DNA from: Candidatus Scatovivens sp.
GTDB lineage: Bacteria > Bacillota > Clostridia > TANB77 > CAG-508
NCBI GenBank assembly: GCA_045613965.1
Contig: JAZLBY010000059.1
Coordinates: forward strand, 1-56,285
Reading direction: 5' to 3'
DNA: 56,285 nucleotides
The position numbers and the translations under genes are program-made. Position 1 is the first letter of the stretch. Each line of letters opens with the position of its first letter. The notes beneath the pieces were generated by a model, which had not been told where the DNA came from, ran no database searches, and was given only the letters and a program-made list of their open reading frames with translations. Positions 8,677 to 56,000 of this stretch are shown here, piece after piece.

Positions 8677-8705
8677 TTGACAATATTTTAAAATTATGGT
8701 ACAAT
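8677..8705 (+). promoter_or_regulatory. sigma-70/sigA-type promoter with extended -10
   Basis: TTGACA, 17 nt spacer, TACAAT, preceded by TGg (TGGTACAAT). Confidence 0.6.
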
Positions 8706-8734
8706 TAAGAAAATAGAGAAAGGGGAGTGAATAT

Positions 8735-8842
8735 ATGAGTTGGGAAAAAGTTATGAAATTATTTAAAAAATCAGACAAGTTTTTAGATAAGGTTCAAAAA
8801 CTTGCAGACCAAGCAAAAAAAGAAGCGAAGAATTTTAAATAA
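8735..8842 (+). CDS. small basic protein (35 aa)
   Basis: ATG 7 nt after GGGGAG, immediately downstream of the promoter at 8677. Confidence 0.35.
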   Translation: MSWEKVMKLFKKSDKFLDKVQKLADQAKKEAKNFK

Positions 8843-8887
8843 TTCTTCCTTCAAAAAAAATATAAAAAAGAAAGGTTGGGAAAGGTT

Positions 8888-9118
8888 ATGGTTAAATTAA
8901 ATGTACCAAAAAAATATCAAAAATATTTCGGAATGTTGGAGGCAGAAGCAGACTTAATAGATGATTGCAAATATATGTTATATTTTGCTAAAGGATATGC
9001 GTGGGAAGGAGAATACCCTATAGTACCCGTAAGAAGTAAAAAAGAAGCATTAGAATATTTAAAAAATGCTTATCCAGAAAAAGGATATGAAGAACTTAAA
9101 GCGAAAGGATTGGTGTAA
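8888..9118 (+). CDS. hypothetical protein
   Basis: In-frame ATG. The track ORF begins at a TTG at 8876. Confidence 0.5.
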   Translation: MVKLNVPKKYQKYFGMLEAEADLIDDCKYMLYFAKGYAWEGEYPIVPVRSKKEALEYLKNAYPEKGYEELKAKGLV

Positions 9119-9119
9119 C

Positions 9120-9332
9120 ATGTGGTCAATAATCCAATTAAGAGATAGAAATGAAACACCATTGTTTGAAGAAGATGACTATGAAGATGGCTTAATCCTA
9201 GATGGCTATACTACAAAAAAAGAAACTTTAGATGAAGTTAAAAATATGAGATTTGTCCAAAACCTAGCTATAGGTTTTGGGCTACAAGACAAAAAATATA
9301 GATGGGAAATAGTAAGAGAGGAGGAAATATAG
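9120..9332 (+). CDS. hypothetical protein
   Basis: ATG at 9120 abuts the previous stop. The track start at 9066 would overlap by 53 nt. Confidence 0.5.
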   Translation: MWSIIQLRDRNETPLFEEDDYEDGLILDGYTTKKETLDEVKNMRFVQNLAIGFGLQDKKYRWEIVREEEI

Positions 9333-9333
9333 T

Positions 9334-9570
9334 ATGGAGTATATAATGTTTATTTTAATAGGAATGATTGCTGGAATATTATTAACAGCAACAATAGCAT
9401 ATGAAATAATTAACAAGTTAAAAGATACAATTAATTCAAGTGTTGATGCACTAGAGTTAGGAGAAGATATAATAATGTCTCAATCAGAGGCAATAACAAA
9501 CCTAGAAGCAAATTTAGAGTTTGTAACAAATAATTTATCAGCTAGAAATAAAAAAGATAATAGGAATTAA
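9334..9570 (+). CDS. small membrane protein
   Basis: N-terminal TM segment FILIGMIAGILLTATIAY. GAGGAGGA RBS. Confidence 0.55.
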   Translation: MEYIMFILIGMIAGILLTATIAYEIINKLKDTINSSVDALELGEDIIMSQSEAITNLEANLEFVTNNLSARNKKDNRN

Positions 9571-9587
9571 ATAAGGAGTTGATGTGT

Positions 9588-9728
9588 ATGTATCAAATAG
9601 TAATGCTAAACAAAGATGGTACAAAATTTGAAAAAAGATTTGAAAGTGAATATTTATATAACAAATTTTTAAACAAAGTCAAACATAGTAAAACTCTAAC
9701 ATTATTATATTATGGAAAGGAGGGTTAA
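9588..9728 (+). CDS. hypothetical protein (46 aa)
   Basis: ATG 10 nt after AAGGAG. Fills the gap before 9733. Confidence 0.4.
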   Translation: MYQIVMLNKDGTKFEKRFESEYLYNKFLNKVKHSKTLTLLYYGKEG

Positions 9729-13602: not shown

Positions 13603-13640
13603 AAGGCATATTACTTATAAAAGTATATGCCTTTTATATT
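13603..13640 (+). terminator. rho-independent terminator
   Basis: AAGGCATAT / ATATGCCTT stem, 13-nt loop, TTTTATATT tail. Confidence 0.55.
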
Positions 13641-13674
13641 AAAATGTCTTAAAATCGATTTTGGAGTGAATGAT

Positions 13675-14238
13675 ATGGAGAAAAACAGATGCAAAGGTTG
13701 TATTTTTCTAAAAAAATACGAAGAAGATAAAATATTTGGTTATTGTGTAAACGATAAATGTAAGAGACAATCAAAACAATTGATAAGTGAACTTTCTGCA
13801 GCATGTAGATATAAAGAAACTGTGGAAAATGTGGAAAAACCTGTGGAAAAATTAAGCAATAAAAAGCTTGGAAGTAATTTTGAAAATGATTTTGCAGAGT
13901 ACCTTTCTAAAAAAGGTTATTGGGTCGCTCAGTTCCCAGGAAAGGATTATACGAATTCTCAACCAGCAGATATGATAGCCTGCAAAAATGATAAACCTTA
14001 TTTAATAGATTGTAAAACTCTTGCAAATAAGAGTGGAACATTTACTTTAGATAGATTAGAACAAAATCAAAGAATGGCTTATAAAAGATTTATACAAGCA
14101 GGAAATAAAAAATATTACTTAGCAATTCTTTGGAACAATAATGTGTATCTAGTAAGCTTAAACAAAATTGATTTGAGATGGAAAAGTTTTAATGTTAAAG
14201 ATTATACTTGTATTAAGGAGAACTTTTATGAAGGTTAA
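13675..14238 (+). CDS. RecU/Hjc-like Holliday-junction resolvase with an N-terminal zinc ribbon
   Basis: CKGC ... C..DKC, then NFENDFAEYL ... ADMIAC ... YLIDCKT ... FTLDRLEQNQ, which fits the PD-(D/E)XK RecU pattern. Start chosen after a GGAG RBS. The track start at 13627 lies inside the terminator. Confidence 0.6.
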   Translation: MEKNRCKGCIFLKKYEEDKIFGYCVNDKCKRQSKQLISELSAACRYKETVENVEKPVEKLSNKKLGSNFENDFAEYLSKKGYWVAQFPGKDYTNSQPADMIACKNDKPYLIDCKTLANKSGTFTLDRLEQNQRMAYKRFIQAGNKKYYLAILWNNNVYLVSLNKIDLRWKSFNVKDYTCIKENFYEG

Positions 14239-15628: not shown

Positions 15629-15829
15629 ATGAAAGAAATGTATATTTTAAAAGAAAATCTAGTTATTGAAAACCAAACAGATTTCGCAGAAAAAGTAGGT
15701 ATAGCCCTCGAAACATTGTCAAGAATATTATCAAGAAAACAAAAATGCTCAAAAGTTACAGCTTATTCTATAGCTAAACATTATAACGAACATAGAGATA
15801 TAGAAAATTATTTTGAAAGAGTGGATTAG
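15629..15829 (+). CDS. small HTH DNA-binding protein
   Basis: QTDFAEKVGIALETLSRILS resembles a helix-turn-helix. Confidence 0.45.
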   Translation: MKEMYILKENLVIENQTDFAEKVGIALETLSRILSRKQKCSKVTAYSIAKHYNEHRDIENYFERVD

Positions 15830-15830
15830 T

Positions 15831-16361
15831 ATGAATGTTGTAAAAGAACAATTGTTAAGCATATTAAATATGCAAGATGTTTTAACTAAATATGGTGTTA
15901 AACCTGAAAGAGGTGGAATGTTTCATTGTCCTTTTCATGGAATAGATAAAAATGCCTCTTCAAAGTGTTATAAAAATAGTTTTTATTGCTTCACATGTAA
16001 TAAACATGGCGATTTTATTCAGTTTGTTCAATATTTATATAATCTTAATTTTCAAGAAGCTATGAATAAAATAATAGATGACTTTAATTTAGGAATAAAA
16101 ACTACTGGTTATTATAATAAATCTAAAATTTTAGAAATGCAAAGACAAAGAGAACTTGAAATTCAAAAAAAAGAAGAACAAAGAAAATACTTTATAAAGT
16201 TATGTAATAGAAAAGATTTATATAATAGATTAGCAGAAAATTGTGAAGCTCAATTAAATAAAGATAATTGGGAAGAACAAACTTATCTTTCATCTTATTA
16301 TAGAAATAGAGCCAATTTATTAGAAATATATATTTGTGATAAATACAATATACAATATTAA
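15831..16361 (+). CDS. CHC2 (DnaG-type) zinc-finger protein without a recognisable TOPRIM domain
   Basis: FHCPFHGIDKNASSKCY ... FYCFTCNKHGD is the primase CHC2 finger. The remainder is coiled-coil-like. Confidence 0.65.
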   Translation: MNVVKEQLLSILNMQDVLTKYGVKPERGGMFHCPFHGIDKNASSKCYKNSFYCFTCNKHGDFIQFVQYLYNLNFQEAMNKIIDDFNLGIKTTGYYNKSKILEMQRQRELEIQKKEEQRKYFIKLCNRKDLYNRLAENCEAQLNKDNWEEQTYLSSYYRNRANLLEIYICDKYNIQY

Positions 16362-19258: not shown

Positions 19259-19462
19259 CTATGCAAGTCTAGTTATACTTATTTCTGCATTTTTCAAAAT
19301 TGGTATTTGAGTATCTGTTACAATTGGAGTAGCTCCACCACTATAAACTATTGTTGGTAATGAAGTTATTGCTAAATTTAATGTTCCTTTGCAACATACT
19401 TTTATTTTCTTATCAAAACTTATATTTTCCCAATCTCCTGCTGCTGCAATTACTGCGTCCAT
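19259..19462 (-). CDS. C-terminal fragment of a BclA-C-terminal-domain (C1q/TNF-like) protein
   Basis: No RBS of its own. Ends ...NAEISITRLA, like BclA-CTD proteins. The frame is offset by 1 nt from the upstream fragment. Confidence 0.45.
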   Translation of the reverse strand: MDAVIAAAGDWENISFDKKIKVCCKGTLNLAITSLPTIVYSGGATPIVTDTQIPILKNAEISITRLA

Positions 19463-44632: not shown

Positions 44633-46426
44633 CTAAATTCCAAGTTCTTCTCTACTATGGTTGCTATGTACTTCTCCCATAGTGCTTTTGCAACCTAGAA
44701 CATTTTGAGCTAAACTAGCTAAGCTATCTGGAATATCATCATGTTGTTTTCCTTGTACTTTCTCTGTTTGGCTAAATTTAAACAACATGTCTAAGAAATA
44801 ATTGTACATCATATTATTTTTTATCATTAGTCTTTTCTTAATCATCAGTCTGTATTGGCTTCTTTGTGCTCCTGTTATAAATCCTACTGATGCAAGTATT
44901 CTATCTAATTTACTCTTTGTTGTTGGAGCTTTGCTACAAGTTATTGCACACCATGTTATTCCTTTTTTCTTTAGTTCTTCTTTTACTGCTTCTGCATACA
45001 TATCTCCACCATTGTTTGCTTCAAAATGGCAATGTGTTATGTGATATTCTATTATTTTATTTACTACCATTGGGATTGTTTCTTCTTTTTTATCTTTGCT
45101 TACATAAACATCTATTAAAGGACAATCCCCATTTTTATATTCACTACATATTGGCATTGATAAATCATCTCCGCCACCCCAAGCTACATCGACTGCAGCT
45201 ACATTCCTTACAAATTCTTTTTCATCATCATATTGCTCATATTTATTCATTTCATCTTCACTAAATAATATTCCTAGTCTCTCAATTGGGTGTTGTTGTA
45301 TTAAACACTCAAAACTTACTGTGTCCATTAAGTCTTTATCTTCCAAAAACATCTCCGTAGTTATTGCAAATCCATATTTATAATTGAAATTGCTCTCGTT
45401 TTTCTCATTTAGACCAGGTATTTTAATTACTTTTATTCTTTGTGGTGCAGTTTTTCTATAATACTCAATAATTCTGCTTAATGGGTCATTTATACTAAAT
45501 ATTGTTCCAATTAAAAGCAGCTTGCATCTACCCTGCATACGCTTTTTAAGAGTACCTGTGAATTCCTCCCATTTCTTATCCATTACATCTTTATTACTTG
45601 CTTCTTCTATGTTCTTTACCAAGTCATCTACATACAATATGTCATGTGCTCTAGTTCTACCTGTGATTGAACCATCAAATCCTGCACAATACAATGTATA
45701 TTCTGAATGTTTGCTCTTTTTCCCATCATTTCTACAATCAAGAGACATTGTGTCAGCACTCTTATATGTTATTTCTAATTTTGGGAATATCTTTTGATAA
45801 TTCTCGTTTTCATCTTCTATTAATGTCATTACTCCATTGTAAAACTTATCTTTTGCTATATTTGCAGAATATGATACCATCATTTTAGGTAAATCTGGAT
45901 TTTTACCTATTGCCCATGCCATAAATCTCTTTCCTGCCTCTGTTTTGCCTGTTCCTTGTGGCATTGATATTGTCATTACTGCTCTTTCTTTATAATAAAA
46001 CTTAGTTAGTTCCCAATTCACATAATATAATACACAAGTTCTTGGTGCTAAAAATTGTTTTTCCTTCTCTATTCCAAATTCTAGTGCTATTGCAAAGTAA
46101 GAATATAAATATCTTGCTAAATAATAGTAATTTTGCTTCATTATTTCGTTTAATTTTATCTTATTTTCTAATAATTCCTCTTTTTTTATCAAATTTTCTA
46201 GTTCTTGTATTAAAAATATCGAAATTTTCAAGCTTTCAGTATAAACAAGGTTGTCTTTAAACATATCATATTTTACTTTGTCTTCTTCTTTTTCTATTTC
46301 TCCTAAATAATCTCTTAACAAATTTAACTTCTGTGCTCTTAGTAAATTTGGCATTTTTTCTTGTAATTGTGTCCTAAGTAAATTTATATTAGAGTTTATC
46401 TGGTTAATATCTCTATTTTCTTCCAT
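44633..46426 (-). CDS. terL: terminase large subunit
   Basis: Walker A-like MPQGTGKTE, 597 aa, upstream of the portal. TAGGAGG RBS. Confidence 0.85.
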   Translation of the reverse strand: MEENRDINQINSNINLLRTQLQEKMPNLLRAQKLNLLRDYLGEIEKEEDKVKYDMFKDNLVYTESLKISIFLIQELENLIKKEELLENKIKLNEIMKQNYYYLARYLYSYFAIALEFGIEKEKQFLAPRTCVLYYVNWELTKFYYKERAVMTISMPQGTGKTEAGKRFMAWAIGKNPDLPKMMVSYSANIAKDKFYNGVMTLIEDENENYQKIFPKLEITYKSADTMSLDCRNDGKKSKHSEYTLYCAGFDGSITGRTRAHDILYVDDLVKNIEEASNKDVMDKKWEEFTGTLKKRMQGRCKLLLIGTIFSINDPLSRIIEYYRKTAPQRIKVIKIPGLNEKNESNFNYKYGFAITTEMFLEDKDLMDTVSFECLIQQHPIERLGILFSEDEMNKYEQYDDEKEFVRNVAAVDVAWGGGDDLSMPICSEYKNGDCPLIDVYVSKDKKEETIPMVVNKIIEYHITHCHFEANNGGDMYAEAVKEELKKKGITWCAITCSKAPTTKSKLDRILASVGFITGAQRSQYRLMIKKRLMIKNNMMYNYFLDMLFKFSQTEKVQGKQHDDIPDSLASLAQNVLGCKSTMGEVHSNHSREELGI

Positions 46427-46453
46427 TTGTGCCTCCTACAAAACAAGACTAGC

Positions 46454-46633
46454 CTAATCAGCTAGCCCCATATATTCTTTTACAGCTTTCGATATTATCT
46501 CGTTCATACTTTCAAAATTGTTAGTTCCCCTTGTGCTTTCACTTCTTGCCTTAAGCCATTGATGTTGATAATATGGAAGTCTAACACTAAATCTTATTGT
46601 TTTCCCTAGTTTTTCTTTATTTTCTCTAGCCAT
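46454..46633 (-). CDS. ribbon-helix-helix (CopG/Arc-like) protein (59 aa)
   Basis: KTIRFSVRLP (beta strand), then two helices (QWLKARSE, MNEIISKAVKEYM). Sits immediately upstream of terL. Below the track cut-off. Confidence 0.45.
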   Translation of the reverse strand: MARENKEKLGKTIRFSVRLPYYQHQWLKARSESTRGTNNFESMNEIISKAVKEYMGLAD

Positions 46634-46679
46634 TTTATCTCTCCTTTATATTATCATAAACCCTTTGACTTTTCAATAT

Positions 46680-46934
46680 CTATTGTGGCATTTTTATAAC
46701 TATTCCAGTTTCTTTAGTTTTTAATGCTCTATCTATTACTGCTTCTAATACATTTAAAACTTCCATTGCTCTTTCTTCTGTTTCATATTCTCCTAATTGT
46801 ACAACTTCCATTCTATCTCCTATAGCAACAATACTATTTAATTCTCCTGTTGCTTTTTGACCATATAAAGATATATTCTTTCTAGTACAATCAACTAAAG
46901 ACACTCCTGTTTTAGTTCGTATTTTTATATCCAT
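46680..46934 (-). CDS. hypothetical protein
   Basis: ORF in the gene train. Confidence 0.5.
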   Translation of the reverse strand: MDIKIRTKTGVSLVDCTRKNISLYGQKATGELNSIVAIGDRMEVVQLGEYETEERAMEVLNVLEAVIDRALKTKETGIVIKMPQ

Positions 46935-47133
46935 AATATTCTTCCCCTTCTACATGTTTATACCATAATTCATTTATTCTACAACACTCTTTATAGCCTT
47001 TCTCAAATTGCACCAATATAAAATTCTTATATATACCTACAACAATGGCGTTTTGTGTTCGTATTATTTTCTCTCTTGTTTCTCCATTTTTGTAAGGTCT
47101 TATTACTTTTACTGGCATTCCTATTTCTACCAT
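46912..47133 (-). CDS. hypothetical protein
   Basis: ORF with GGGAGG RBS. Confidence 0.5.
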   Translation of the reverse strand: MVEIGMPVKVIRPYKNGETREKIIRTQNAIVVGIYKNFILVQFEKGYKECCRINELWYKHVEGEEYYGYKNTN

Positions 47134-47166
47134 ACTTTTGACCTCCCAAAACTTTAAAATAATTAA

Positions 47167-47242
<76 letters not shown>

Positions 47243-47286
47243 ATATACGCAACTAAGTCTACATGAGACCTAGTTACTAATCTTTT

Positions 47287-47724
47287 TTATTTTCCTGTGC
47301 TTCCAAAGCCTCCAGTTCTTTCTCCATCTGCTGCATCATCTTCTGTTGTGCCATATTCTACAAATATTCCTTGCATCATTTTTTCTCCTGCTTTAAGTAC
47401 AATGTCTTCATCTCTCATATTATAGAACAATCCTGCTATTTCCCCTTCATTATCTTCGTTGTTATAATAGTCTGCATCAACTACCCCAACTCCATTTAAG
47501 ATAATAAGTCCTTTTTTCTTTGGATTAGAACTTCTATTGAATAACAATAATGTTTCATTATCTGGGAATATTGCTTTTACACCACTCTTTACCATTGTTA
47601 TTTCATGGCTTTTACATATTGTGTCTTCTGGTACTATAAAATCATAACCTGCACTTTTTGCTGTACTTCTTCTTGGTAATTCAATCTCCCCTTCTATTCT
47701 ACTTACTTTTTCAAATTTTCTCAT
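47287..47724 (-). CDS. dut: dUTPase
   Basis: SAGYDF, GVGVVDADYYN, MMQGIF, GGFGSTGK motifs. Confidence 0.85.
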   Translation of the reverse strand: MRKFEKVSRIEGEIELPRRSTAKSAGYDFIVPEDTICKSHEITMVKSGVKAIFPDNETLLLFNRSSNPKKKGLIILNGVGVVDADYYNNEDNEGEIAGLFYNMRDEDIVLKAGEKMMQGIFVEYGTTEDDAADGERTGGFGSTGK

Positions 47725-48266
47725 ATTCCTTTTTCCTCCTTATTTAAACATTTTCTACATATTGGGTAATATTTATCTTTGTCTCCGACTAATGTGTCTC
47801 CATTTTTCTTTATCTTGCACATTGTATATTCTGCTGCTTCTCCACATTTTTCACATTTTGCCTTTAGCAGCTCTATTTCATCAGCTATTCCCATTATTTC
47901 ACACATCTTCCCAAAAGGCTTTAGCTCACTTGTTGTCCTTAATCCTCCTACATATATCGTGTAACCTGCTCTATTTAAGTCTTCTAGCAGCATATAGTCG
48001 CCTTCAATAAATTGTGCTTCATCTATGATTATAACTTTTGTCGCTTCTTCTAATTTTCCTACAATGTCTTCAAATCTTTCTACTACATCTGCCTCTATTC
48101 TTATGTCTGTCTCCCTACTCTTTATATACGACTTGTCTCTCTTGTCTTTACTTGGCTTAAAACATTGTAAGTTTACTCCTTTGTTTATTTGTATATACAT
48201 CATGCCAATCTGTATTAGCCTTCCACTCTTTCCACTAAACATCGGTCCTGTTACTACATATATCAT
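47721..48266 (-). CDS. tdk: thymidine kinase
   Basis: VTGPMFSGKS P-loop, IIIDEAQF, C-terminal CEKCG ... CRKC zinc site. Confidence 0.9.
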   Translation of the reverse strand: MIYVVTGPMFSGKSGRLIQIGMMYIQINKGVNLQCFKPSKDKRDKSYIKSRETDIRIEADVVERFEDIVGKLEEATKVIIIDEAQFIEGDYMLLEDLNRAGYTIYVGGLRTTSELKPFGKMCEIMGIADEIELLKAKCEKCGEAAEYTMCKIKKNGDTLVGDKDKYYPICRKCLNKEEKGI

Positions 48267-48466
48267 TATTTTATTCTCCCTAAATATTCTAATCCTTTTT
48301 CTGTCTTTACTACTATGTAGTTTGATTTTATTAGTCTTCTAAACTTCCCTTCACTTATCTTCCCATCTCTTGTTATCTTTTGTCTATTTCTTGGTCTTAG
48401 TTCTATTCCTTTCTCAAACTCCCATTCATTTAATGTTTTTGTCTCCCTTTGTGGTTTTATATACAT
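48266..48466 (-). CDS. hypothetical basic protein
   Basis: ORF with AAGGAGG RBS. Confidence 0.5.
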   Translation of the reverse strand: MYIKPQRETKTLNEWEFEKGIELRPRNRQKITRDGKISEGKFRRLIKSNYIVVKTEKGLEYLGRIK

Positions 48467-48488
48467 AACTATTTCCTCCTTATTTATC

Positions 48489-48749
48489 TTATTTGTTTTT
48501 ATTTAATATTTCTTTTGTTCTCTCTATCTCCGCTTCTAGGTCCATTATAGTTGCCGCTAAACTCTTCATCGAACTTTCTAATAACTCTACTCCACTTACA
48601 CTCTCTAATTCATCATGTATCTTCCCTAGCTCGTTTAAATGGTACTTCATCGCTTTTATCGTTTTGCTCGTTCCTTTTATGTTTATTCTTAATATCTTAT
48701 CACAATCTTCTTCTAACTTCCCATTTAGCAACTCTTCTACTATATTCAC
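48489..48749 (-). CDS. hypothetical coiled-coil protein
   Basis: The GTG at 48749 follows a GGAGGG RBS. The track start (GTG at 48779) has none. Confidence 0.45.
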   Translation of the reverse strand: MNIVEELLNGKLEEDCDKILRINIKGTSKTIKAMKYHLNELGKIHDELESVSGVELLESSMKSLAATIMDLEAEIERTKEILNKNK

Positions 48750-49142
48750 TCTTTTCCCTCCATACCACTTAATACTCACTATGTAAGAAAGTAATAACTT
48801 ATTCCCATCTCAACCAATTAAAGCATGCCCTCATTGGTACTCTCGCACAGGTTTCTGTGTCGCTAGGTAGCTCTCCCTAGTCTTACTACACCCTTCTTTA
48901 CTTCCCTACATACTAAATATTAAATATTATTTGTAAGAGTAACTAGAATTCCCTTACTCTACAATATACCGATTGGCTAAGACCAAATCAACAACAAATG
49001 ATTTGTAAATGTATTCAAAACATTGGTAATCTCTTACCTAGAAAGGAGTAAACATGCGATATTAAATGCGTTTTTTCGTTTCACATATTTACTTAGGTTG
49101 GGTTTCTTTTTTTTGATGATATCTAGTATCTCATCTTCTTAT

Positions 49143-49171
49143 TTTATATCATAGTGGTATCAAAATGTCAA
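49143..49171 (-). promoter_or_regulatory. strong promoter facing the late arm
   Basis: On the minus strand: TTGACA, 17 nt spacer, TATAAA, with a TGa extended -10. About 390 nt upstream of the first CDS. Confidence 0.5.
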
Positions 49172-49347
49172 CCCCTTTTTATATTTTTTTAAAAAAAATT
49201 TTTATAGGTTTTTAGGGAGGGGTATAGTGGTATCATTTTGATTTTTGTGTTTTTCGGTGGAAGAGAGGTTGACTACGCCGCCCCTGTCGATTTTGTCGAA
49301 ATAGGGGGCGGGGTGTGTTGGGTGTGGTGGTTTTTGTCTTGTTTTCT

Positions 49348-49402
49348 TGTAATATTTTTGTAACAATTCTGTAATATTTCTGTAACAAAAATGTAATATT
49401 TA
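49348..49402 (+). repeat. five exactly phased 11-bp repeats, TGTAATATTTy alternating with TGTAACAAwwm
   Basis: Units start at 49348, 49359, 49370, 49381 and 49392. The array ends 15 bp before the -35 box. Confidence 0.85.
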
Positions 49403-49417
49403 ATTTTAATAAAAGCA

Positions 49418-49446
49418 TTGACTTTTTAAAAAAATCATGGTAAAAT
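49418..49446 (+). promoter_or_regulatory. promoter of the opposite-strand cassette
   Basis: TTGACT, 17 nt spacer, TAAAAT, preceded by TGg. Confidence 0.55.
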
Positions 49447-49592
49447 TATTATAATAAAAGAAGAGGAAAAAGAAGCGGCGTAATGGTGTTATTGGTAAAA
49501 GTAGAAAAAGCCCCGCAACATTCCAAAAAACTTTTATTATAAAAAAATTATAAAATAGAAAGGCAGGGGAAACCCTGGAAAAGGTGGTTAAT

Positions 49593-49967
49593 ATGGACTA
49601 TAATTATTTTGAAAATGTAAAAGAAGACATTAAGGAAGCAATCAAAGAAAGATATGAAAAAGAAGAAATTCTAGGAGATGAAATAGAGCAAGATGCTCTT
49701 TATGATGATTTATTTATTGATGACAGCGTAACAGGTAACGCCTCAGGCTCTTACACATTCAGCACATATAAGGCAGAGGAATACATCGCACACAATTTAG
49801 ACTTGTTAAAAGAAGCAATTGAAGAATTCGGCGGAGAATATGGAGAAGCCTTAGAGCGTGGGGCTGAATTCTGCGATGTAACCATCAGGTGCTATGTATT
49901 AGGGCAAGCTATAGGGGAAGCAATAGAAGAATTAAAAGAAGAACTTGAAGAAGAAGCGGAGGCGTAA
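49593..49967 (+). CDS. highly acidic protein of unknown function
   Basis: ATG after AAAGGTGG. D/E-rich throughout. The sequence is G+C-richer than the bulk genome. Confidence 0.6.
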   Translation: MDYNYFENVKEDIKEAIKERYEKEEILGDEIEQDALYDDLFIDDSVTGNASGSYTFSTYKAEEYIAHNLDLLKEAIEEFGGEYGEALERGAEFCDVTIRCYVLGQAIGEAIEELKEELEEEAEA

Positions 49968-49970
49968 GAG

Positions 49971-50099
49971 ATGAAAAAAAAGTTAATAAAAAATATTAAA
50001 CTTTTAATCGGTGGAATAATTGGAACGGCTGCAATTTTTGGAGTAATTGCAATAATTCAATTAATAGTAAATACAATTTGCAGCGTAATATTAAAATAA
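49971..50099 (+). CDS. small membrane protein (42 aa)
   Basis: TM segment LLIGGIIGTAAIFGVIAIIQLIV. Starts 3 nt after the previous stop. Confidence 0.4.
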   Translation: MKKKLIKNIKLLIGGIIGTAAIFGVIAIIQLIVNTICSVILK

Positions 50100-50113
50100 A
50101 AGGGGTGTAAAAT

Positions 50114-50266
50114 ATGAAAAATTTTAAAATAATAATATTAAATGGTGCAGGCTGTGAGATTTACAATAAAATCATAAAAGCAGAAAATGAAAACAAAGCA
50201 ATTATTGAAGTTTTAGACAATGAAGTTATTTATTCAGATGATACAATAACAATTGAAGAAGTTTAA
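50114..50266 (+). CDS. hypothetical protein (50 aa)
   Basis: ATG after an AGGGGTG RBS. Confidence 0.4.
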   Translation: MKNFKIIILNGAGCEIYNKIIKAENENKAIIEVLDNEVIYSDDTITIEEV

Positions 50267-50294
50267 AAAATAGAAAGGTTAAAAGGTGGAAAAT

Positions 50295-50618
50295 ATGGAA
50301 AAATTAAAAAATAATATTAATAAATTAATAATCGATGGAGTTAGACCAGAACAACTTGAAAATTTAGAAGAGTTACAAGCTCGTTACGATGCAAGGCAAA
50401 GCTTTTACAAAAAAGCTTATACAGGTACTTACTTAAATTGTCTATATTTAAAAAGTTATAATACTATTGTTGCTTGTATATTTCAAAATCAATTAAGAAT
50501 TTATGGTGCATTCTCACAAACAACAGCAAGACACATAAGAGAATTTGCAAAACAAAACGGATTTGATGGTATAATAACATATCAAGACATGAAAAACACA
50601 TGCGTAATAAGTAAATAA
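50295..50618 (+). CDS. hypothetical protein
   Basis: ATG after AAAGGTGGA. Contains the SYNTIVA ... SQTTARHIREF motif, which I cannot assign to a family. Confidence 0.55.
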   Translation: MEKLKNNINKLIIDGVRPEQLENLEELQARYDARQSFYKKAYTGTYLNCLYLKSYNTIVACIFQNQLRIYGAFSQTTARHIREFAKQNGFDGIITYQDMKNTCVISK

Positions 50619-50646
50619 TAAAAAAACAGGTTAGGAGGTGGAAGCC

Positions 50647-51228
50647 GTGGGCTTAAATGATAACACTAAAAATATTGAACTAGCACTAAAAGAGAAAAAC
50701 AGCATACAAAAGCAAAAAGAAGCGGAAAAGCTAAGAAAACAGGAAGAAAAAGAAAACGCCGAGAGATTGGCGGAAGATATCAAAGAAGCAATCAAAACAG
50801 AATTTCGCAGGTATTTAGATATTGCAGGCGTAACTTATGCGATAGAGTTTTACAGCATAGAACGAAAAAACGAAATTTTGCAAGATATACTAGCAACATT
50901 TGGAGCGGTTGGCACTATGGAGCTAAAAAAAGAAGGGTACACAGGAACAAAAATCCAATTTTGCAGCAACAAAAAAGAGATTGAGAAGGTGTTCAATGAT
51001 AATTATTATAAAATACTAAAACAAGAAGAGGCGGCTTATAAGTTAAATGATAAATACTTATATCATAAACAATTGCAGGAATTCAAAGAAGAGCCAGCAG
51101 AAGAAAGAAGCGGGGCGGATTGGTTCAAAGTATTAAAATATATCTTTTACATAATAGGCGGCGTGGTATTCTTTCCAATTGTATTTATAGGATTTTTAAT
51201 CCTTGCAGTGTGTAAAAGTAGCAAATAA
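50647..51228 (+). CDS. coiled-coil protein with a C-terminal TM anchor
   Basis: GTG 8 nt after TAGGAGGTGG. C-terminus YIFYIIGGVVFFPIVFIGFLILAV. Confidence 0.55.
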   Translation: MGLNDNTKNIELALKEKNSIQKQKEAEKLRKQEEKENAERLAEDIKEAIKTEFRRYLDIAGVTYAIEFYSIERKNEILQDILATFGAVGTMELKKEGYTGTKIQFCSNKKEIEKVFNDNYYKILKQEEAAYKLNDKYLYHKQLQEFKEEPAEERSGADWFKVLKYIFYIIGGVVFFPIVFIGFLILAVCKSSK

Positions 51229-51257
51229 AAAGAAGGTTCAAGCCTTCTTTTTATTTG
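51229..51257 (+). terminator. rho-independent terminator
   Basis: AGAAGG / CCTTCT stem with a TTTTTATTT tail. Confidence 0.55.
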
Positions 51258-51264
51258 GTATATT

Positions 51265-51301
51265 GAAGCGGTCAAATGCTTAATTTTGCCGCTTCTTTTT
51301 G
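51265..51301 (+). terminator. second terminator hairpin
   Basis: GAAGCGG / CCGCTTC stem with a TTTTTG tail. Confidence 0.45.
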
Positions 51302-51551
51302 TTGCTCAAATAATCAAAAATAAGCCGTTTTATGATTTAGACATATAAGTATATTTCTAAAAAAATAAAATGGCTTAAAATCGATTTTCATTGATTTAAA
51401 ATCAAGTTGATTTTTAAAAAATCGTTGATTTTCTGCGAAACATTGCACAAAATACTAATTTTGTGCAGTTTACATAATAGGTTACAACCTGCCCTGGTGG
51501 GTGGGTATTTTTTTTGTCGGTGGTCCGCTTCCAGATTTCAAAAAAAGCCCG

Positions 51552-51704
51552 AAAGTCGAAAGTCGTAGCAAAATTTTGAAAAAAAATTTTTTCAAAAAGT
51601 CGCAAAAGTCGTAAAGTCGCAAAAGTCGTATAATTTTTCCAATTAAAACACACCCCAAAGTCGTAGGCAAAAGTCGTAAAAGTCGTAGCTATTCCTGAAA
51701 GTCG
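51552..51704. repeat. array of 10 same-orientation AAAGTCG(YA) motifs
   Basis: Copies start at 51552, 51559, 51596, 51605, 51613, 51622, 51657, 51670, 51679 and 51698. Consensus AAAGTCGTA. Confidence 0.9.
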
Positions 51705-52285
51705 CCGATGTTTCCTAAATCGATAAGAGAAGCGGAACTACTTTCAGGTAATTCTGGCATTGCATTCAAAATTTCATTCTCATCATTTGGTTTAGCAGCA
51801 TCACTAATTGGTCCAGCTTGAATTTCTTGTACATCTTTCATGTCATAGAAGTTTTTAGCCCTGAAAATATAAACTGGTGCATTAACCTTATTCAAAGTCG
51901 CCATCGAAGCATCATAATTGCATACATAATCCTTTGCTTTTTTTATAGTGTTCGTGAACTCAACGTTGTACTTACCCTGTTCAATTTCATAAAAAGTCGT
52001 TCTGCACCAACCTGAGCAAAGAGCGAGACCTTCAACAGTAGGAGGCAAACTTTCCTCAGAGCACATAGAGAGGTAATCGATAAATCTATTTTGAAGTTCT
52101 TCGACAGACTTAGGTTTTTCCATACCCATTTTCATAACTTCAAGATTAAATTTCAAAACTTTTTTAGCGATTTCTCTGTCTTTATCAGTTTTAGGTTTGT
52201 TGTCATGAAGAGCTCCGATATTTCTTCTACCCATTTTAAAAGGTTTAGCATCATTATCTAGTATTTCTGTATCATCATCAAACAT
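51689..52285 (-). CDS. terS: terminase small subunit
   Basis: LPPTVEGLALCSGWCRTTFYEIE ... FTNTIKKAKDYV ... VYIFRAKNFYDMKD fits the Firmicute-phage TerS pattern (P.T.eGLAL.LG.sr.T ... iKrAk ... iF.LKN) as I recall it. ATG lies 9 nt after GAGGTG. Confidence 0.7.
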   Translation of the reverse strand: MFDDDTEILDNDAKPFKMGRRNIGALHDNKPKTDKDREIAKKVLKFNLEVMKMGMEKPKSVEELQNRFIDYLSMCSEESLPPTVEGLALCSGWCRTTFYEIEQGKYNVEFTNTIKKAKDYVCNYDASMATLNKVNAPVYIFRAKNFYDMKDVQEIQAGPISDAAKPNDENEILNAMPELPESSSASLIDLGNIGDFQE

Positions 52286-52334
52286 ATTAAATAACACCTC
52301 ACATTAAAACATTAAAAATATTTCTTTAAGAGAA

Positions 52335-52363
52335 ATTTTATCAAAAGAGACAAAAAAAGTAAA
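52335..52363 (-). promoter_or_regulatory. possible terS promoter
   Basis: On the minus strand: TTTACT, 17 nt spacer, TAAAAT, with a TGa extended -10. Confidence 0.3.
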
Positions 52364-52413
52364 GAGAGAAAAAGAAAAAAAATATAATATAAAAAATGGA
52401 AAAAAATGGAAAA

Positions 52414-52678
52414 CTCCCTAAAAAGGGCATTTTCTCCCTAACTCCCTAAAAACTCCCTGGGTTTTGCCTTACTCTCTCAAGGGATAGGGAGAAAGGGAGG
52501 TTTTTTTCTTTAAGTTTAATAAAATAAAATATAATAAAATAAAATATATATATAAATATATATAAGAAGTAGGAGGGGGTATTTTTTGAAAAAAGCTCCC
52601 TAACACTAATGATATCAACGAAAAATGGCAGGGAGTTTTTATTTTTAAAACTCCCTAACTCCCTAAAAAACTCCCTAA
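52414..52678. repeat. two clusters of CTCCCTAA direct repeats (7 exact and 1 variant) plus inverted copies
   Basis: Exact copies at 52414, 52434, 52442, 52596, 52651, 52659 and 52671. Variant CTCCCTGG at 52453. Inverted TAGGGAG at 52485 and CAGGGAG at 52629. Confidence 0.9.
52515..52565. other. 51-nt tract containing only A and T
   Basis: ttaataaaataaaatataataaaataaaatatatatataaatatatataa lies between the two CTCCCTAA clusters. Confidence 0.8.
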
Positions 52679-52981
52679 AAGTATTGAAAAACGCTGTTTA
52701 TGATAAACTAGGACTAAAATAAAAAATAGTGAAAAATTAACAAGAAAATTTATTTTTGATAAAATTATGAGAAAAAAAATGGTAAAAAATGATAAAAATG
52801 ATATATTTTTTTTTACAACACACTTTTCACTTTTATAGAAAAAAATTTTTTTTAAAAGAAATATTCCAACTAATAAAAGTCGTAAAGTTGTGAAAGTCTT
52901 AATTGGTAAGAGAAACAAACATAATTTACATAATTACATTAACTGGAATTAAAATTATTTTAATTATTTTTCAAAAAGGTA

Positions 52982-53010
52982 TTGACAAAAGAAAAAAGTT
53001 ATTATAAGAT
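52982..53010 (+). promoter_or_regulatory. promoter of the + strand (early) arm
   Basis: TTGACA, 17 nt spacer, TAAGAT. The first + strand gene follows at 53044. Confidence 0.5.
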
Positions 53011-53043
53011 AAGAGTATCAAATCAAGAAAGGAGTTGGGAGGA

Positions 53044-53271
53044 ATGGATTTAGGAATAAAGCTTCAGCTAAATGAAATGGAGGACAAAATAAACACAATT
53101 AAAGAGGAACTAGACTTTATAGGAAGCCAGAACTTGCTAATAATAAAGCAAAATGCAGCAAATGAACTGATGAATAGGGTAATACTAAATAAACTGGGAA
53201 TTGAGCCAGAAACAATTGATGAAATGATTAATGACATTAAAGAAAAAATAGACAAAGAATTTGGTGTTTAA
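53044..53271 (+). CDS. hypothetical coiled-coil protein (paralog of 53628..53807)
   Basis: ATG 9 nt after AAAGGAG. The IIKQNAANELMNRVILNKLGIEPETIDEMI segment resembles the paralog. Confidence 0.5.
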   Translation: MDLGIKLQLNEMEDKINTIKEELDFIGSQNLLIIKQNAANELMNRVILNKLGIEPETIDEMINDIKEKIDKEFGV

Positions 53272-53293
53272 GAAAGAAATGGAGGTGTTTGAA

Positions 53294-53611
53294 ATGGAAG
53301 AGATTATAAAAAAAGGAGAATATTGTAGGACCAGTAAAGGAATAATATTTCAAGCAGAAGCAACATTCTTATATGATGAACAATATAAAACTATGTTTGA
53401 ATGTGAGATTTGTGAACATAATGAAAGATTAGCTGTAATAATACACCCTAGAGACAAGGTCAATGGAAAAGTCTTAGTACAAAAGGAATACAATAATGAT
53501 GATACTTATATTTTTTATCTGCATGGTGGTTGTATTATAGGAGAAAATGATGTAGAAACAGTTTTGGCAAGAGAATACTTAGATAATGGAATATTTAAAG
53601 TAAAAAAATAA
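53294..53611 (+). CDS. hypothetical protein
   Basis: ATG after GGAGGTG. The N-terminus MEEIIKKGEYCRTSKGII resembles that of the ORF at 56004. Confidence 0.5.
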   Translation: MEEIIKKGEYCRTSKGIIFQAEATFLYDEQYKTMFECEICEHNERLAVIIHPRDKVNGKVLVQKEYNNDDTYIFYLHGGCIIGENDVETVLAREYLDNGIFKVKK

Positions 53612-53627
53612 AGGAGAATTAGTTAAT

Positions 53628-53807
53628 ATGGAAGAAAAATTAGATAATATAATTGAACAAAATAAACATATAATTAAACAAAACGATGCAATACTGATTA
53701 TGATGCAAGGAATTATGCTAAGGCAAGGATTTTCAGAAGAAGATTTAGAAACTATTATAAAAAATACAGAAAAAATAGTAAAAAGTAGATGGAGTGAGGA
53801 GAATTAG
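53628..53807 (+). CDS. hypothetical protein (59 aa)
   Basis: ATG after AAGGAG. IIKQNDAILIMMQGIMLRQGFSEEDLETII is paralogous to 53044..53271. Confidence 0.45.
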   Translation: MEEKLDNIIEQNKHIIKQNDAILIMMQGIMLRQGFSEEDLETIIKNTEKIVKSRWSEEN

Positions 53808-53809
53808 TT

Positions 53810-54352
53810 ATGGGAAAAAGAGATATGAAAAGAGCAATTAAAGTATTAAAAAGTCGCAGAGATGACATGATGAGAGCTATTGATAGTATAGACCATCTGC
53901 TTGAATGCAGCTTAAATAATTATAATTTTATGATAGACTTTGCAATCAAAAAAGGATTTAAAAGAGTTATTGATATAGGTTGTGCTTATGGTTATCAATC
54001 AGAATTATGCGAAGGTAAAATTGACTATGTTGGAGTAGATGAAGATTTGGTAAATTTCTATAATCAAGAGAGATATGACTATTATGTAGGTAAATATCCA
54101 CAAAAAATATCTTTTTTGATGGACGAAAGCGAAATAGCAATATCAAATCTAGCAATAGGTTGGAATTGCTATGTAAATGAAAAAGAATTTGAAAAACAAT
54201 GTAAAGCATTAGTAGAAGACTTTAAGGCTTGTTTGCTATATTTACCAACAGATAGAGAAAAAATATTGAATAAATATTTTAACCATGTAGAGATATATAA
54301 AAAAGAAGAAAGCAAATTTGTACCAACAGCATTTTACTATTGCTATAATTAG
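53810..54352 (+). CDS. possible SAM-dependent methyltransferase
   Basis: RVIDIGCAYGYQ resembles motif I (vlDiGcG.G). Nothing else is diagnostic. Confidence 0.35.
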   Translation: MGKRDMKRAIKVLKSRRDDMMRAIDSIDHLLECSLNNYNFMIDFAIKKGFKRVIDIGCAYGYQSELCEGKIDYVGVDEDLVNFYNQERYDYYVGKYPQKISFLMDESEIAISNLAIGWNCYVNEKEFEKQCKALVEDFKACLLYLPTDREKILNKYFNHVEIYKKEESKFVPTAFYYCYN

Positions 54353-54802: not shown

Positions 54803-54816
54803 GGAGAGTGAAACGA

Positions 54817-54993
54817 ATGATAACATTAGCATTTTGGAAAAAAGTTGAAGTAGAGAGCTATATAAGTTATTTAGGAGTAATATTGGTATCAATATTAACA
54901 ATAGTAGCAGATATTGTATTACTACCATTTGAAATATTAGCATTTTTATTACATTGGTTATTAGAAGGAGATTGGAGGGAATGGAATGAGTAA
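54817..54993 (+). CDS. small membrane protein
   Basis: ATG 10 nt after AAGGAG. Hydrophobic core. Confidence 0.45.
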   Translation: MITLAFWKKVEVESYISYLGVILVSILTIVADIVLLPFEILAFLLHWLLEGDWREWNE

Positions 54994-55243
54994 AACAAGT
55001 AGTACAACAGGAGAAAGTTTAAACTATACAATAAATAAAATAGATTATGTACAACAAGGTTGGCAATGTCCAATATGCAAAAGAGTATTAGCACCATTTG
55101 TAAGCATGTGTCCATGTAGTGGATTAAGCTGCAAAACAACAATGACTGTAGATGATTTATACAAATCTATAACAATAGATGCAAAAGAATTAGAAGAATA
55201 TTATGAAAAATGGAAAAATTGCAAAATAAAGGAGGAAAAATAA
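54986..55243 (+). CDS. small zinc-binding protein
   Basis: CPICKR ... CPC cluster. GGAGGG RBS. Confidence 0.5.
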   Translation: MSKTSSTTGESLNYTINKIDYVQQGWQCPICKRVLAPFVSMCPCSGLSCKTTMTVDDLYKSITIDAKELEEYYEKWKNCKIKEEK

Positions 55244-55244
55244 A

Positions 55245-55661
55245 ATGATATTATTAATTATAGCAATAATAGTAGTAATTATAGGATTTTGGTTATTATC
55301 ACAAAGTAAGAAAATAAATCAATTTGCAAAATCAACTTATTTTTTTGAGAGTGATATGTTTTATGCAGAGAACTTGCAACTTATAGCAGCAGGATTTTTA
55401 ATTGTAGGATTTACAGCATTAGGAATAGAATTAATAACTTTAGGGTTTAAGCCTATAGATTATAAGAAATTTAAAGTAGAATATGATGTAGTAAGAGAAA
55501 CAATAACAAATTCAGCAGATATGAGAGACACAAATTATACACAAAAATTAATCGAATTAAACACAGAAATAATGACAAATAGGGAATGGAAAGATAATCT
55601 TTGGGTAGGAATATATTATAATGAAAAAATAGCTGAATTAGATTTATTAAGGAAGGAATAG
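55245..55661 (+). CDS. membrane protein
   Basis: Two TM segments (ILLIIAIIVVIIGFWLL and LIAAGFLIVGFTALGIELI). Confidence 0.55.
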   Translation: MILLIIAIIVVIIGFWLLSQSKKINQFAKSTYFFESDMFYAENLQLIAAGFLIVGFTALGIELITLGFKPIDYKKFKVEYDVVRETITNSADMRDTNYTQKLIELNTEIMTNREWKDNLWVGIYYNEKIAELDLLRKE

Positions 55662-55664
55662 ATT

Positions 55665-55835
55665 ATGGAAGTAAATTTAAAAAGTTCAGAATGGTGCATA
55701 AATAAAATAGAACCAAAAAGCAAATTGAAAGTAACAGAGAATCTAAGTATAATGACAGAGAAGAAATATAATTGGTTACAGAAGAAAATGTGGAAGATGT
55801 TACTAAATATAGAGATAGAAGATATAAAGGAGTAG
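55665..55835 (+). CDS. hypothetical protein (56 aa)
   Basis: ATG 3 nt after the previous stop. Fills a gap. Confidence 0.4.
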   Translation: MEVNLKSSEWCINKIEPKSKLKVTENLSIMTEKKYNWLQKKMWKMLLNIEIEDIKE

Positions 55836-55838
55836 GTT

Positions 55839-56000
55839 ATGGAAGAAGAAGAAGATGGAATTATAGAAATGTTAGGAAACAGATATAAAATAGGCAATTT
55901 TAATGCTGAAACAGGAGCAATTGAATTTATAAAACTAAAAAAAGATGGAATATTTAAAAGAGCTTATAAAAAAATTATAAATAAATTAAAAGGTAGGTAA
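55839..56000 (+). CDS. hypothetical protein (53 aa)
   Basis: ATG after AAGGAG. Fills a gap. Confidence 0.4.
   Translation: MEEEEDGIIEMLGNRYKIGNFNAETGAIEFIKLKKDGIFKRAYKKIINKLKGR

Follow-up and report, generated by a model that had tools for sequence, protein, structure and literature searches.

The divergent gap upstream of terS

The window analysed here is the whole 56,285-nt stretch of contig JAZLBY010000059.1, which belongs to an uncultured family of low-GC phages with genomes of about 56 kb from rumen and gut. In this window terS (51689-52285/52297, minus strand; the listed ORF starts at 52297 and the likely ATG is at 52285) and the first early gene (plus strand, starting at about 53035) diverge from a gap of about 750 to 761 nt, as the preliminary description had it when placing a non-coding region of about 750 bp between terS and the early arm. 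A promoter-like site for terS (TTTCCA, 17 nt, TATTAT; 52384-52412, minus strand) overlaps a AAAAATGGA repeat at 52391-52413 and adjoins the first iteron. At the other end, an early promoter-like site (TTGACA, 17 nt, TAAGAT; 52982-53010, plus strand) bounds the candidate origin region; both sites are matches to the consensus only. Rfam and tRNA scans of the region gave no match, nor did a megablast search of positions 51000-54000 against GenBank phages. Among cultured phages, Clostridium phage Maintenon comes closest in terS and terL (27-37% identity), but its genes are ordered differently, without the divergent gap, so that it is uninformative for the array. In public sequencing runs, relatives appeared only at about 90% identity and as fragmented contigs, and the two raw-read runs yielded 4-10 reads, too little for usable coverage. 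GC skew was rejected as an origin marker, since in the window it tracks gene orientation.

The gap is populated by an 8-nt word, CTCCCTAA, of which seven exact copies start at 52414, 52434, 52442, 52596, 52651, 52659 and 52671, all on the plus strand, together with a variant, CTCCCTGG, in the same orientation at 52453. The whole window holds nine exact copies where 1.02 were expected, a number reached in none of 100 shuffles. Counted on both strands of the 761-nt intergenic region, the 6-nt core CTCCCT occurs 11 times against 0.06 expected from mononucleotide shuffles; all 11 cores lie within 52414-52678 and seven of them belong to exact 8-mers, which is within the range of 6 to 12 short iterons known from SaPI origins. 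Outside the region, one copy at 48276, on the minus strand and thus reading TTAGGGAG, lies 9 nt upstream of the ATG of thymidine kinase (48266), which would be the position expected for a ribosome-binding site; the other, at 49212, is in another non-coding region. An exact search for CTCCCTAACTCCCTAA in IMG/VR returned 10 loci, all of them chance matches or matches in other contexts, with different GC content and none related.

The cores flank an A/T tract, six on one side and five on the other. Four direct iterons form the terS-proximal cluster (52412-52460, plus strand), with (AA)CTCCCTAA at 52414, 52434 and 52442 and CTCCCTGG at 52453, and this block is conserved nearly base for base in the related phage contigs L014, L016 and L039. 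Two inverted cores follow at 52485-52500 on the minus strand, TAGGGAG (52485) and AAGGGAG (52493), right next to the A/T tract; read in the orientation of terS the pair is CTCCCTTTCTCCCTA, and it is invariant in the window and the same three relatives. On the early-gene side of the tract a single direct iteron, AGCTCCCTAA (52594-52603, plus strand), faces the pair from the opposite side, the inner arrangement in the window being two inverted copies (52485, 52493) opposed to one direct copy (52596). Beyond it comes the early-side cluster (52629-52678, plus strand), which opens with an inverted core (52629-52635) and continues with three direct iterons at 52651, 52659 and 52671. The corresponding cluster of L014, L016 and L039 consists of four to five direct copies spaced 9-11 nt apart, without an inverted copy.

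The tract itself, a proposed DNA unwinding element, comprises 51 nt without G or C (52515-52565) and is the longest such run in the window, the runner-up measuring 34 nt. It lies near the centre of the array with iterons on each side, and no 50-mer duplex in the window is less stable than 52515-52564, at −40.5 kcal/mol compared with a mean of −57.3 (sd 3.8) and a next lowest value of −44.4. A G-rich box, GGAGGGGGTATTTT (52572-52585), sits at its edge, and a conserved non-repeat box, TTGATATC, follows at 52611-52618 on the minus strand. Between the iterons and the early promoter-like site, three degenerate AAAGTCG-like copies occupy 52875-52901 on the plus strand. The number, orientation and two-cluster arrangement of the direct copies, the 51-nt stretch and the AAAAATGGA repeats (placed at 52392-52410) all agree with the preliminary description. 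Of the inverted copies it had listed TAGGGAG at 52485 and CAGGGAG at 52629, which are present, and had missed the third, AAGGGAG at 52493. The perfect 9-bp hairpin that it reported, GGGAGTTTT/TATTTTT/AAAACTCCC at 52631-52655, is also there and extends to 11 pairs (52629-52657) with one G-T pair, but it is not an element of its own, since it arises where the inverted core of the early-side cluster pairs with the direct copy that follows. L014, L016 and L039, the closest relatives, do not have it because their early-side cluster contains no inverted copy. A role for the hairpin as a terminator or other separate signal was rejected on these grounds, and no upstream gene reads into it.

A conserved layout with lineage-specific words

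Comparison with about 15 related phage contigs from rumen and gut revealed the same layout in about 13 lineages, each with a word of its own that is present in 6-13 copies where fewer than 0.8 would be expected. The distal cluster, the G-box, the A/T tract, the inverted copies and the proximal cluster are retained in every lineage. The word is CTCCCT in the window, L014, L016 and L039, TTCCCT in L022 and L025, T[GA]CCCT in L040, L041, L045 and L049, T[GA]CCCC in L043/44 and T[GA]CACC in L024; L019 uses TCTAAC, L020 GTAGGA and L021/23 GTAACA. Between L020 and L019 the word may have been rewritten in place, with the scaffold around it still homologous.

Several elements of the scaffold recur independently of the word. 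Of the 12 complete intergenic regions that were mapped, 9 have their longest A/T-only run between word copies, and L049 has this layout as well; in L041, L020 and L021 the longest run is elsewhere, and an A/T-rich stretch between the clusters is visible by eye. The inner inverted pair is found, with other words, in L024, L045, L019, L040 and L049, and an oppositely pointing pair on each inner side of the tract in L024, L045, L019 and L049. A box of four to seven G beside the tract, in varying orientation, is common to lineages that differ in word and in helicase (L014, L016, L039, L019, L020, L043 and L045). Inspection by eye, without statistics, also detected a (T)TGATAT box in the array region of L016, L019, L020, L021, L023 and L024 (TTGAGAT in L014), between the word clusters and at a variable position relative to the A/T tract.

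Proteins that might read the word

The gene at 7001-8467 (plus strand) encodes a P4-family SF3 helicase with D5_N and DUF5906 domains (Pfam) and a winged-helix-like C-terminus; its homologues number roughly 800, and JGI names homologues of it 'P4 family phage/plasmid primase'. A profile search matched it to PDB entry 7OLA, the PriRep5 protein of SaPI5, with E = 9e-30. The AlphaFold model of the product (pLDDT 88) has the topology H-S-H-H-S-S in residues 401-476, and its best Foldseek matches were 7OLA and 7OM0 (TM 0.70/0.76, with 433 columns aligned to 7OLA). Sequence and predicted fold thus relate this protein to PriRep5 as a homologue of its helicase part, and the model has the make-up of Rep-type helicases, in which a winged helix forms the C-terminal domain. 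Among the ORFs scanned, no other candidate initiator was present. In particular, Pfam and PHROGs searches of 27 early, replication and flanking ORFs, a set outside which lie several small ORFs, for example 53628-53807, 54808-56000 and 8473-9728, yielded no Rep_3/RepA-type winged-helix initiator.

Orthologues of this helicase are encoded beside the array in L024, L040, L041, L043/44, L045 and L049, and the distance from array to helicase operon is 0.2-2.4 kb in L019, L021, L024, L040, L041, L043, L045 and L049. In the window and in L038/L039 it is 10.6 kb, with the array upstream of the helicase operon, and for helicases P0002, P0014 and P0060 the interval is filled by 6-10 kb of accessory genes. 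All seven further lineages with a D5_N/DUF5906 helicase (49-77% identical to that of the window) have words of the form T-N-C-[CA]-C-[CT], like the window; the 77%-identical helicase goes with an identical word and the 49-70% identical ones with related words. L019, which has a DUF927 helicase with a Cch-HTH, and L021, which has a 486-aa P-loop protein without detectable similarity to the window helicase, use unrelated words. In the sequences compared, the iteron word is thus coupled to the helicase type, as a correlation over some ten lineages that is partly confounded by overall relatedness. Identities calculated separately for the N-terminal, core and C-terminal parts of the helicase did not cleanly single out the C-terminal domain as the one that sets specificity.

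TerS would be the reader of the word if the array were a packaging recognition site, pac or cosB-like, in which TerS binds the clusters, the A/T tract bends and the large terminase cuts between them. The models for such a site, lambda cosB, SPP1 pacL/pacR and P1 pac, likewise lie beside terS and consist of a bendable central segment flanked by repeat clusters, and they co-vary with terS specificity. The array adjoins terS as a terminase recognition site would, directly upstream of the gene in every relative and, in the window, 117-381 nt upstream of the listed ORF start (52297) or, counted from the likely ATG (52285), 129-393 nt; its repeat spacing of 8-12 nt with intervening T-tracts would suit DNA wrapping. 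The contigs of 6 of 12 close relatives end no more than 750 nt upstream of terS, several of them within the array, which would also fit a packaging site, but assembly breaks are to be expected in an A/T-rich repeat region. Against packaging stands the uncoupling of the word from terS. The helix-turn-helix of TerS (LPPTVEGL.L.SG..RT.F.EI..G) stays near-invariant even between lineages whose words are unrelated, and L025 and L019 are about 90% identical in the DNA of the terS region as far as a sharp breakpoint 86 nt before the ATG, upstream of which their words differ; TerS was rejected as the word reader on these two grounds. TerS identity is also a poor predictor of the word (59-62% between lineages with unrelated words, 45% with a related one), and the site does not co-vary with the TerS DNA-binding domain. 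Judged by its sequence, the array after terS (51548-51704) is the better pac candidate, because its AAAGTCG/CGACTTT motif is constant across all terS relatives and travels with terS. That constancy also favours the view of the preliminary description that the AAAGTCG array implies a second DNA-binding specificity. The pac alternative mentioned there fares worse than an origin, and we regard it as improbable.

The same description had alternatively suggested an operator array for the early/late switch, that is, a regulator on the words controlling the divergent terS and early promoters without a role in replication. The array does lie between divergent promoter-like sites, its first iteron adjoining the −35 element of the terS site, and in L019 and L045 the first early gene beside the array encodes a small helix-turn-helix protein. 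In the window this protein has 74 aa (6762-6986, plus strand); its gene always precedes the helicase gene and belongs to its module. It is the only HTH protein linked to the module, and it does not track the word: L038 shares the word of the window, but the recognition helix of its small HTH protein resembles that of L019, and one HTH family accompanies both D5-type and DUF927-type helicases, whose words are unrelated. It was therefore rejected as the word reader. Moreover, an operator would not typically comprise eleven sites, split into two clusters by 51 nt without G or C, with DnaA boxes in sister lineages, and the nearest iteron is 300 nt from the early promoter. An operator is thus unlikely; an initiator bound to the words could still influence the terS promoter secondarily. 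The two-cluster layout would also suit a centromere-like partition site of a plasmid-prophage, bound by a ParR- or ParB-type adaptor as in R1 parC, and this is all that speaks for partition. Family scans of the early and replication genes found no ParA, ParM, ParB or ParR gene, the word tracks the helicase type and the DnaA boxes of relatives adjoin the array, which makes partition the least probable of these explanations.

A candidate iteron-type origin

We attribute the array at 52412-52678 to a candidate iteron-type replication origin at which a self-loading initiator-helicase would act, with a probability of about three in four on the sequence comparisons above. An origin with iterons flanking an A/T-rich unwinding element was also the main reading of the preliminary description, and it gains from the conservation of the layout and the change of the word with the helicase, as well as from the PriRep5 homology of the helicase and the DnaA boxes of sister lineages. 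We infer that the helicase binds the words, that the A/T tract melts and that the site acts as an origin. In the proposed sequence of events, the SF3 helicase (7001-8467) would recognise the 8-bp CTCCCTAA words through its C-terminal winged-helix domain, by analogy with the Rep proteins of SaPIs, assemble on both clusters, which are opposed across the 51 nt without G or C, melt the A/T tract between them and then serve as the self-loaded replicative helicase. As the ORFs scanned included no recognised polymerase gene, primer formation and DNA synthesis would be left to host enzymes and to a separate zinc-ribbon protein of the DnaG type (15813-16361).

At the position equivalent to 52875-52901, L014, L016 and L039 carry three to four DnaA boxes, with TTWTCCACA present four times in L039 (9555-9606), four times in L014 (290-342) and three times in L016 (3458-3498). 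The window has no TTWTNCACA within 52298-53034 and a trio of DnaA boxes at 13821-13850, which could mark another initiation site; this counts against an origin at the array.

The satellite phage P4 offers a parallel for an initiator gene at a distance: its alpha protein, an SF3 primase-helicase of the P4 family, uses a C-terminal winged-helix domain to bind octamer iterons distant from the gene. The window system resembles it in helicase family, winged-helix C-terminus and iterons away from the gene. P4 differs in having two separate iteron regions, ori and crr, where here two clusters surround one A/T tract, and alpha carries its own primase domain. Origins of iteron plasmids (RK2, F, P1, pPS10 and others) also pair direct repeats with DnaA boxes and an A/T-rich unwinding element (PMC4980987), the last likeness being limited to L014, L016 and L039. 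Their iterons measure 17-22 bp, and the winged-helix initiators that bind them, of the Rep_3 type, bring in the host's DnaB (PMC4980987), whereas no Rep_3-type gene was found among the ORFs scanned here and the proposed initiator is itself a helicase.

The staphylococcal SaPI origins (SaPI5 PriRep5, SaPI1 Rep1, SaPIbov1/SaPI2 Rep; PMC9371898, PDB 7OLA) are alike in more respects. They consist of 6-12 short iterons around a central A/T-rich region, with opposite iteron directions on its two sides, and Rep binds the iterons through a C-terminal winged helix (PMC9371898). Where the SaPI-type pattern calls for at least two oppositely pointing iterons on each side, the window opposes two inverted copies to a single direct one. 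As in the phages compared here, the origin word is element-specific and matched to the element's own Rep, and related elements use several unrelated Rep types; the window helicase, homologous in sequence and predicted fold to the helicase part of PriRep5, shares a winged-helix-like C-terminus. The present system differs in belonging to a 56-kb phage and not to a satellite island, in a helicase without a fused primase domain, in words of 7-8 nt instead of 5-6 nt, and in a conserved G-box and, in some lineages, DnaA boxes. Furthermore, the SaPI origin lies immediately downstream of rep, and the array is instead upstream of the helicase operon, with the helicase gene 10.6 kb off, a difference that counts against the origin reading. 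Enterococcus phage Abitsa (Efquatrovirus) is a tailed phage with a PriRep5-like self-loading helicase and an origin predicted from seven iterons around an A/T-rich region (PMC13517437). It belongs to another phage group, has 10-bp repeats and a predicted origin near the genome end, and that prediction is computational only, as is ours; comparative evidence of word swapping was not found in the part of its description consulted (PMC13517437). The layout is accordingly no new principle, having precedents in SaPI origins and in the predicted Enterococcus phage origin.

More tentatively, and at somewhat less than even odds, the origin may be a swappable cassette whose genomic site, between the early promoter and terS, is fixed, and which is served by at least three unrelated self-loading helicases with words of their own. 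The shared scaffold would consist of the G-box, the A/T tract and the TTGATAT box, in which words can be rewritten in place, as between L020 and L019. The helicases would be of the D5/P4 type, the DUF927/Cch type and the unrelated 486-aa P-loop protein, with the initiator gene up to 10 kb away, and the host DnaA boxes of some lineages would mean that the phage helicase and the DnaA of the host initiate jointly.

In summary, a probable origin can now be placed in an uncultured phage family, apart from the probable packaging signal in the AAAGTCG array, and this separation is of use for annotating and engineering such genomes. The roughly ten matched helicase/word pairs among the relatives lend themselves to a binding-swap or co-variation study of how self-loading SF3/MCM-like initiators read DNA. 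If the cassette view is true, they would provide a natural matched set of initiators and words from which to approach the recognition code of winged-helix self-loading helicases.

Repeat array and A/T tract next to terS

In the 761-nt gap between terS and the first early gene, the 6-nt iteron core CTCCCT was found 11 times when both strands were counted, against 0.06 expected. The full word CTCCCTAA occurs nine times in the 56,285-nt window versus 1.02 expected, a number reached by no shuffle. Two + strand clusters, at 52414-52460 and 52596-52678, comprise seven CTCCCTAA copies and one CTCCCTGG variant. A sequence check recovered all the repeats, the A/T-only tract and the hairpin listed in the preliminary description at their coordinates. 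Besides the inverted cores already named at 52485 and 52629, which run opposite to the direct copies, the search revealed a third one at 52493 that had been overlooked; the hairpin (52629-52657) is real and is made up of an inverted and a direct iteron. No G/C-free run in the window is longer than that at 52515-52565 (51 nt against 34 nt for the next), which is also the window's least stable 50-mer duplex (−40.5 kcal/mol compared to a mean of −57.3, sd 3.8). At the edge of this tract lies a G-rich box, GGAGGGGGTAT (52572-52585), which recurs across lineages with different words and helicases and in either orientation.

Genome context

The window has a G+C content of 27% and appears to be a phage genome that is complete or almost so; bovine gut metagenomes are the source of its related sequences. 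The + strand carries the early and replication genes, which start at about 53035, cross the window end and continue as far as 16361. These genes encode a methyltransferase, a 74-aa HTH protein (6762-6986), a D5_N/DUF5906 helicase (7001-8467), RecT, an exonuclease, SSB, a resolvase-like protein, an SNF2-type helicase and a DnaG zinc-ribbon protein. Neither a polymerase nor a classical initiator (Rep_3, DnaD, lambda O) was identified among the 27 early, replication and flanking ORFs scanned. Lysis and structural genes occupy the - strand between 16419 and 46426 (terL); beyond them come the genes for tRNA-Thr, dUTPase and thymidine kinase. The P22 gp3-like terS (51689-52285, - strand) stands alone between an AAAGTCG array and the origin-like region.

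The separation of terS and terL by about 5 kb (44633-52297 in the window) is also seen in the related phage contigs L039, L041 and L049; the stretch contains small genes in opposite orientation, the thymidine kinase, dUTPase and tRNA-Thr genes, and a large non-coding region. A second large non-coding gap (48270-49580, between the late arm and the genes at 49584-51228) gave no Rfam match and carries TAGGGAGGGGTAT, similar to the G-rich box, at 49212-49226, a G/C-rich inverted repeat around 49279-49312, 22-nt tandem repeats at 49348-49401 and a promoter-like TTGACT…TAAAAT. Convergent with terS, a 196-aa protein (50638-51228) has a hydrophobic C-terminal stretch resembling a membrane anchor. Its homologues (L014, L015, L017-L020, L022 and L025) keep their position in all close relatives but are only 28-35% identical, far more diverged than their neighbours. 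The terL products of L041 (12357-15194) and L042 (7210-10047) have 945 aa versus 597 aa in the window, and their faint LAGLIDADG and Hom_end matches suggest an intein or homing-endonuclease insertion. Finally, the 40 nt up to and including the early -35 (52951-52989, …TTTTTCAAAAAGGTATTGACAAA) were found in many otherwise unrelated bovine gut contigs, at a depth of up to 319 and with many loose ends on either side; the pattern suggests either a broadly shared promoter module or a recombination boundary.

Repeat words and helicase types in related phages

About 15 informative contigs of related rumen and gut phages were retrieved using terS and the helicase as queries. All of them keep the gap from terS to the divergent early promoter, and the layout is kept in the order distal cluster, G-rich box, A/T tract, two inverted copies and proximal cluster; its proximal half is conserved almost base for base in L014, L016 and the window. 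The repeat word is lineage-specific: CTCCCT in the window, L014, L016 and L039, TTCCCT in L022 and L025, T[GA]CCCT in L040, L041/42, L045 and L049, T[GA]CCCC in L043/44, T[GA]CACC in L024, TCTAAC in L019, GTAGGA in L020 and GTAACA in L021/23, with 6-13 copies per lineage against fewer than 0.8 expected. Since the DNA between the repeats of L020 (3584-3686) and L019 (3616-3720) is homologous (77% over 107 nt) and the words nevertheless differ (GTCCTAC versus GTCTAACA), the comparison suggests rewriting of the words in place and not replacement of the whole module.

TerS was rejected as the reader of the word, its HTH (LPPTVEGL.L.SG..RT.F.EI..G) being nearly invariant across all lineages and terS identity not predicting the word. 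The DNA of L025 and L019 is 90% identical over a stretch that begins 86 nt before the terS ATG and extends past the gene; upstream of this stretch, L025 has TTCCCT and L019 TCTAAC. The 74-aa HTH protein was also rejected: it is present with D5-type and with DUF927-type helicases, and L038 has the window's word, yet a recognition helix like that of L019, not that of the window. On sequence comparison, the word does follow the type of helicase. Seven out of seven further D5_N/DUF5906 lineages, with helicases 49-77% identical to that of the window, use T-N-C-[CA]-C-[CT] words as the window does, and the helicase with 77% identity comes with the identical word. The DUF927 + Cch-HTH helicase of L019 goes with an unrelated word, and the different 486-aa P-loop protein of L021, VirE-like by eye only, with another unrelated one. 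This co-variation is drawn from some ten lineages, whose relatedness partly confounds it; per-domain helicase identity did not isolate a specificity domain. In most lineages, 0.2-2.4 kb separate the array from the start of the helicase operon; in the window and L038/39, the two are set apart by accessory early genes spanning about 10 kb.

Assignment of the locus

A profile built from the D5-type proteins matched one solved structure, the SaPI5 initiator-helicase PriRep5 (7OLA, E = 9e-30). PriRep5 chains were also the best structural matches of the AlphaFold model of the window helicase (TM 0.70/0.76, 433 columns; pLDDT 88), in which residues 401-476 form a C-terminal helix-strand-helix-helix-strand-strand unit. 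Origins of staphylococcal pathogenicity islands (SaPI) contain six to twelve short iterons, half of them on either side of an A/T-rich region located near the centre; each side has at least two, and they point in opposite directions (PMC9371898). The SaPI Rep proteins, of three unrelated types, bind the iterons by a winged helix at their C-terminus; origin melting by them proceeds without ATP, and they are self-loading (PMC9371898). This description closely fits the locus and its relatives, and the locus shows most features of such origins; by analogy it would work like a SaPI origin. In the window, two inverted copies (52485 and 52493) face a single direct copy (52596) across the tract, and the array lies upstream of the helicase operon, whereas SaPI origins lie immediately downstream of rep. 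An iteron-plasmid origin was ruled out because no Rep_3 initiator was found among the ORFs scanned and the words are short.

We infer, with a probability of about 75%, that 52412-52678 is an origin served by the 7001-8467 helicase, which would bind CTCCCTAA words on either side of the A/T tract, open the tract and load itself. Priming and synthesis would fall to host enzymes together with the phage's zinc-ribbon primase-like protein.

That the repeats form a packaging site is quite improbable: the array adjoins terS and contig ends fall in the region, but the word does not co-vary with terS. Just after terS, ten AAAGTCG copies in a single orientation (51552-51704) form an array at 51548-51704, with further copies at 51894, 51993 and 52876 and 15 in the window against 2 expected. 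AAAGTCG also follows terS in relatives with terS 45-86% identical, irrespective of the origin word. Because this word and the terS HTH are both constant, the AAAGTCG array makes the better packaging-signal candidate, likely a pac or terS-binding site. The weak terL matches to T4-/T7-type terminase domains and an SPP1-type portal in a relative are compatible with headful packaging without establishing it.

The origin reading is also backed by L039 (9555-9606), L014 (290-342) and L016 (3458-3498), lineages which share the window's word and carry three to four DnaA boxes (TTWTCCACA) in the interval from the distal cluster to the early promoter; one of these boxes is the perfect consensus TTATCCACA. 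At this position the window has no DnaA box and instead three degenerate AAAGTCG-like copies (52875-52901). Its own trio, TGTGGAAAA three times, is at 13821-13850 in front of a resolvase-like domain. In L038, three boxes including the perfect TGTGGATAA (19403-19432) occupy the space between two ORFs, of 49 aa (zinc-ribbon) and 133 aa, which are fused in the window as 13627-14238. The 13821-13850 trio may serve as a second initiation site or titrate DnaA.

Together with the HTH result and the number and layout of the sites, the DnaA boxes make an operator array unlikely, in spite of its location between divergent promoter-like sites; initiator binding may possibly affect the terS promoter as a side effect. 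A partition site is very improbable, no partition genes having been seen in the family scans of early and replication genes.

In Enterococcus phage Abitsa, an origin of this helicase-served kind was predicted in a 2026 paper (PMC13517437). What the present phages add is a natural series of swapped helicase/word pairs at one fixed genome position.
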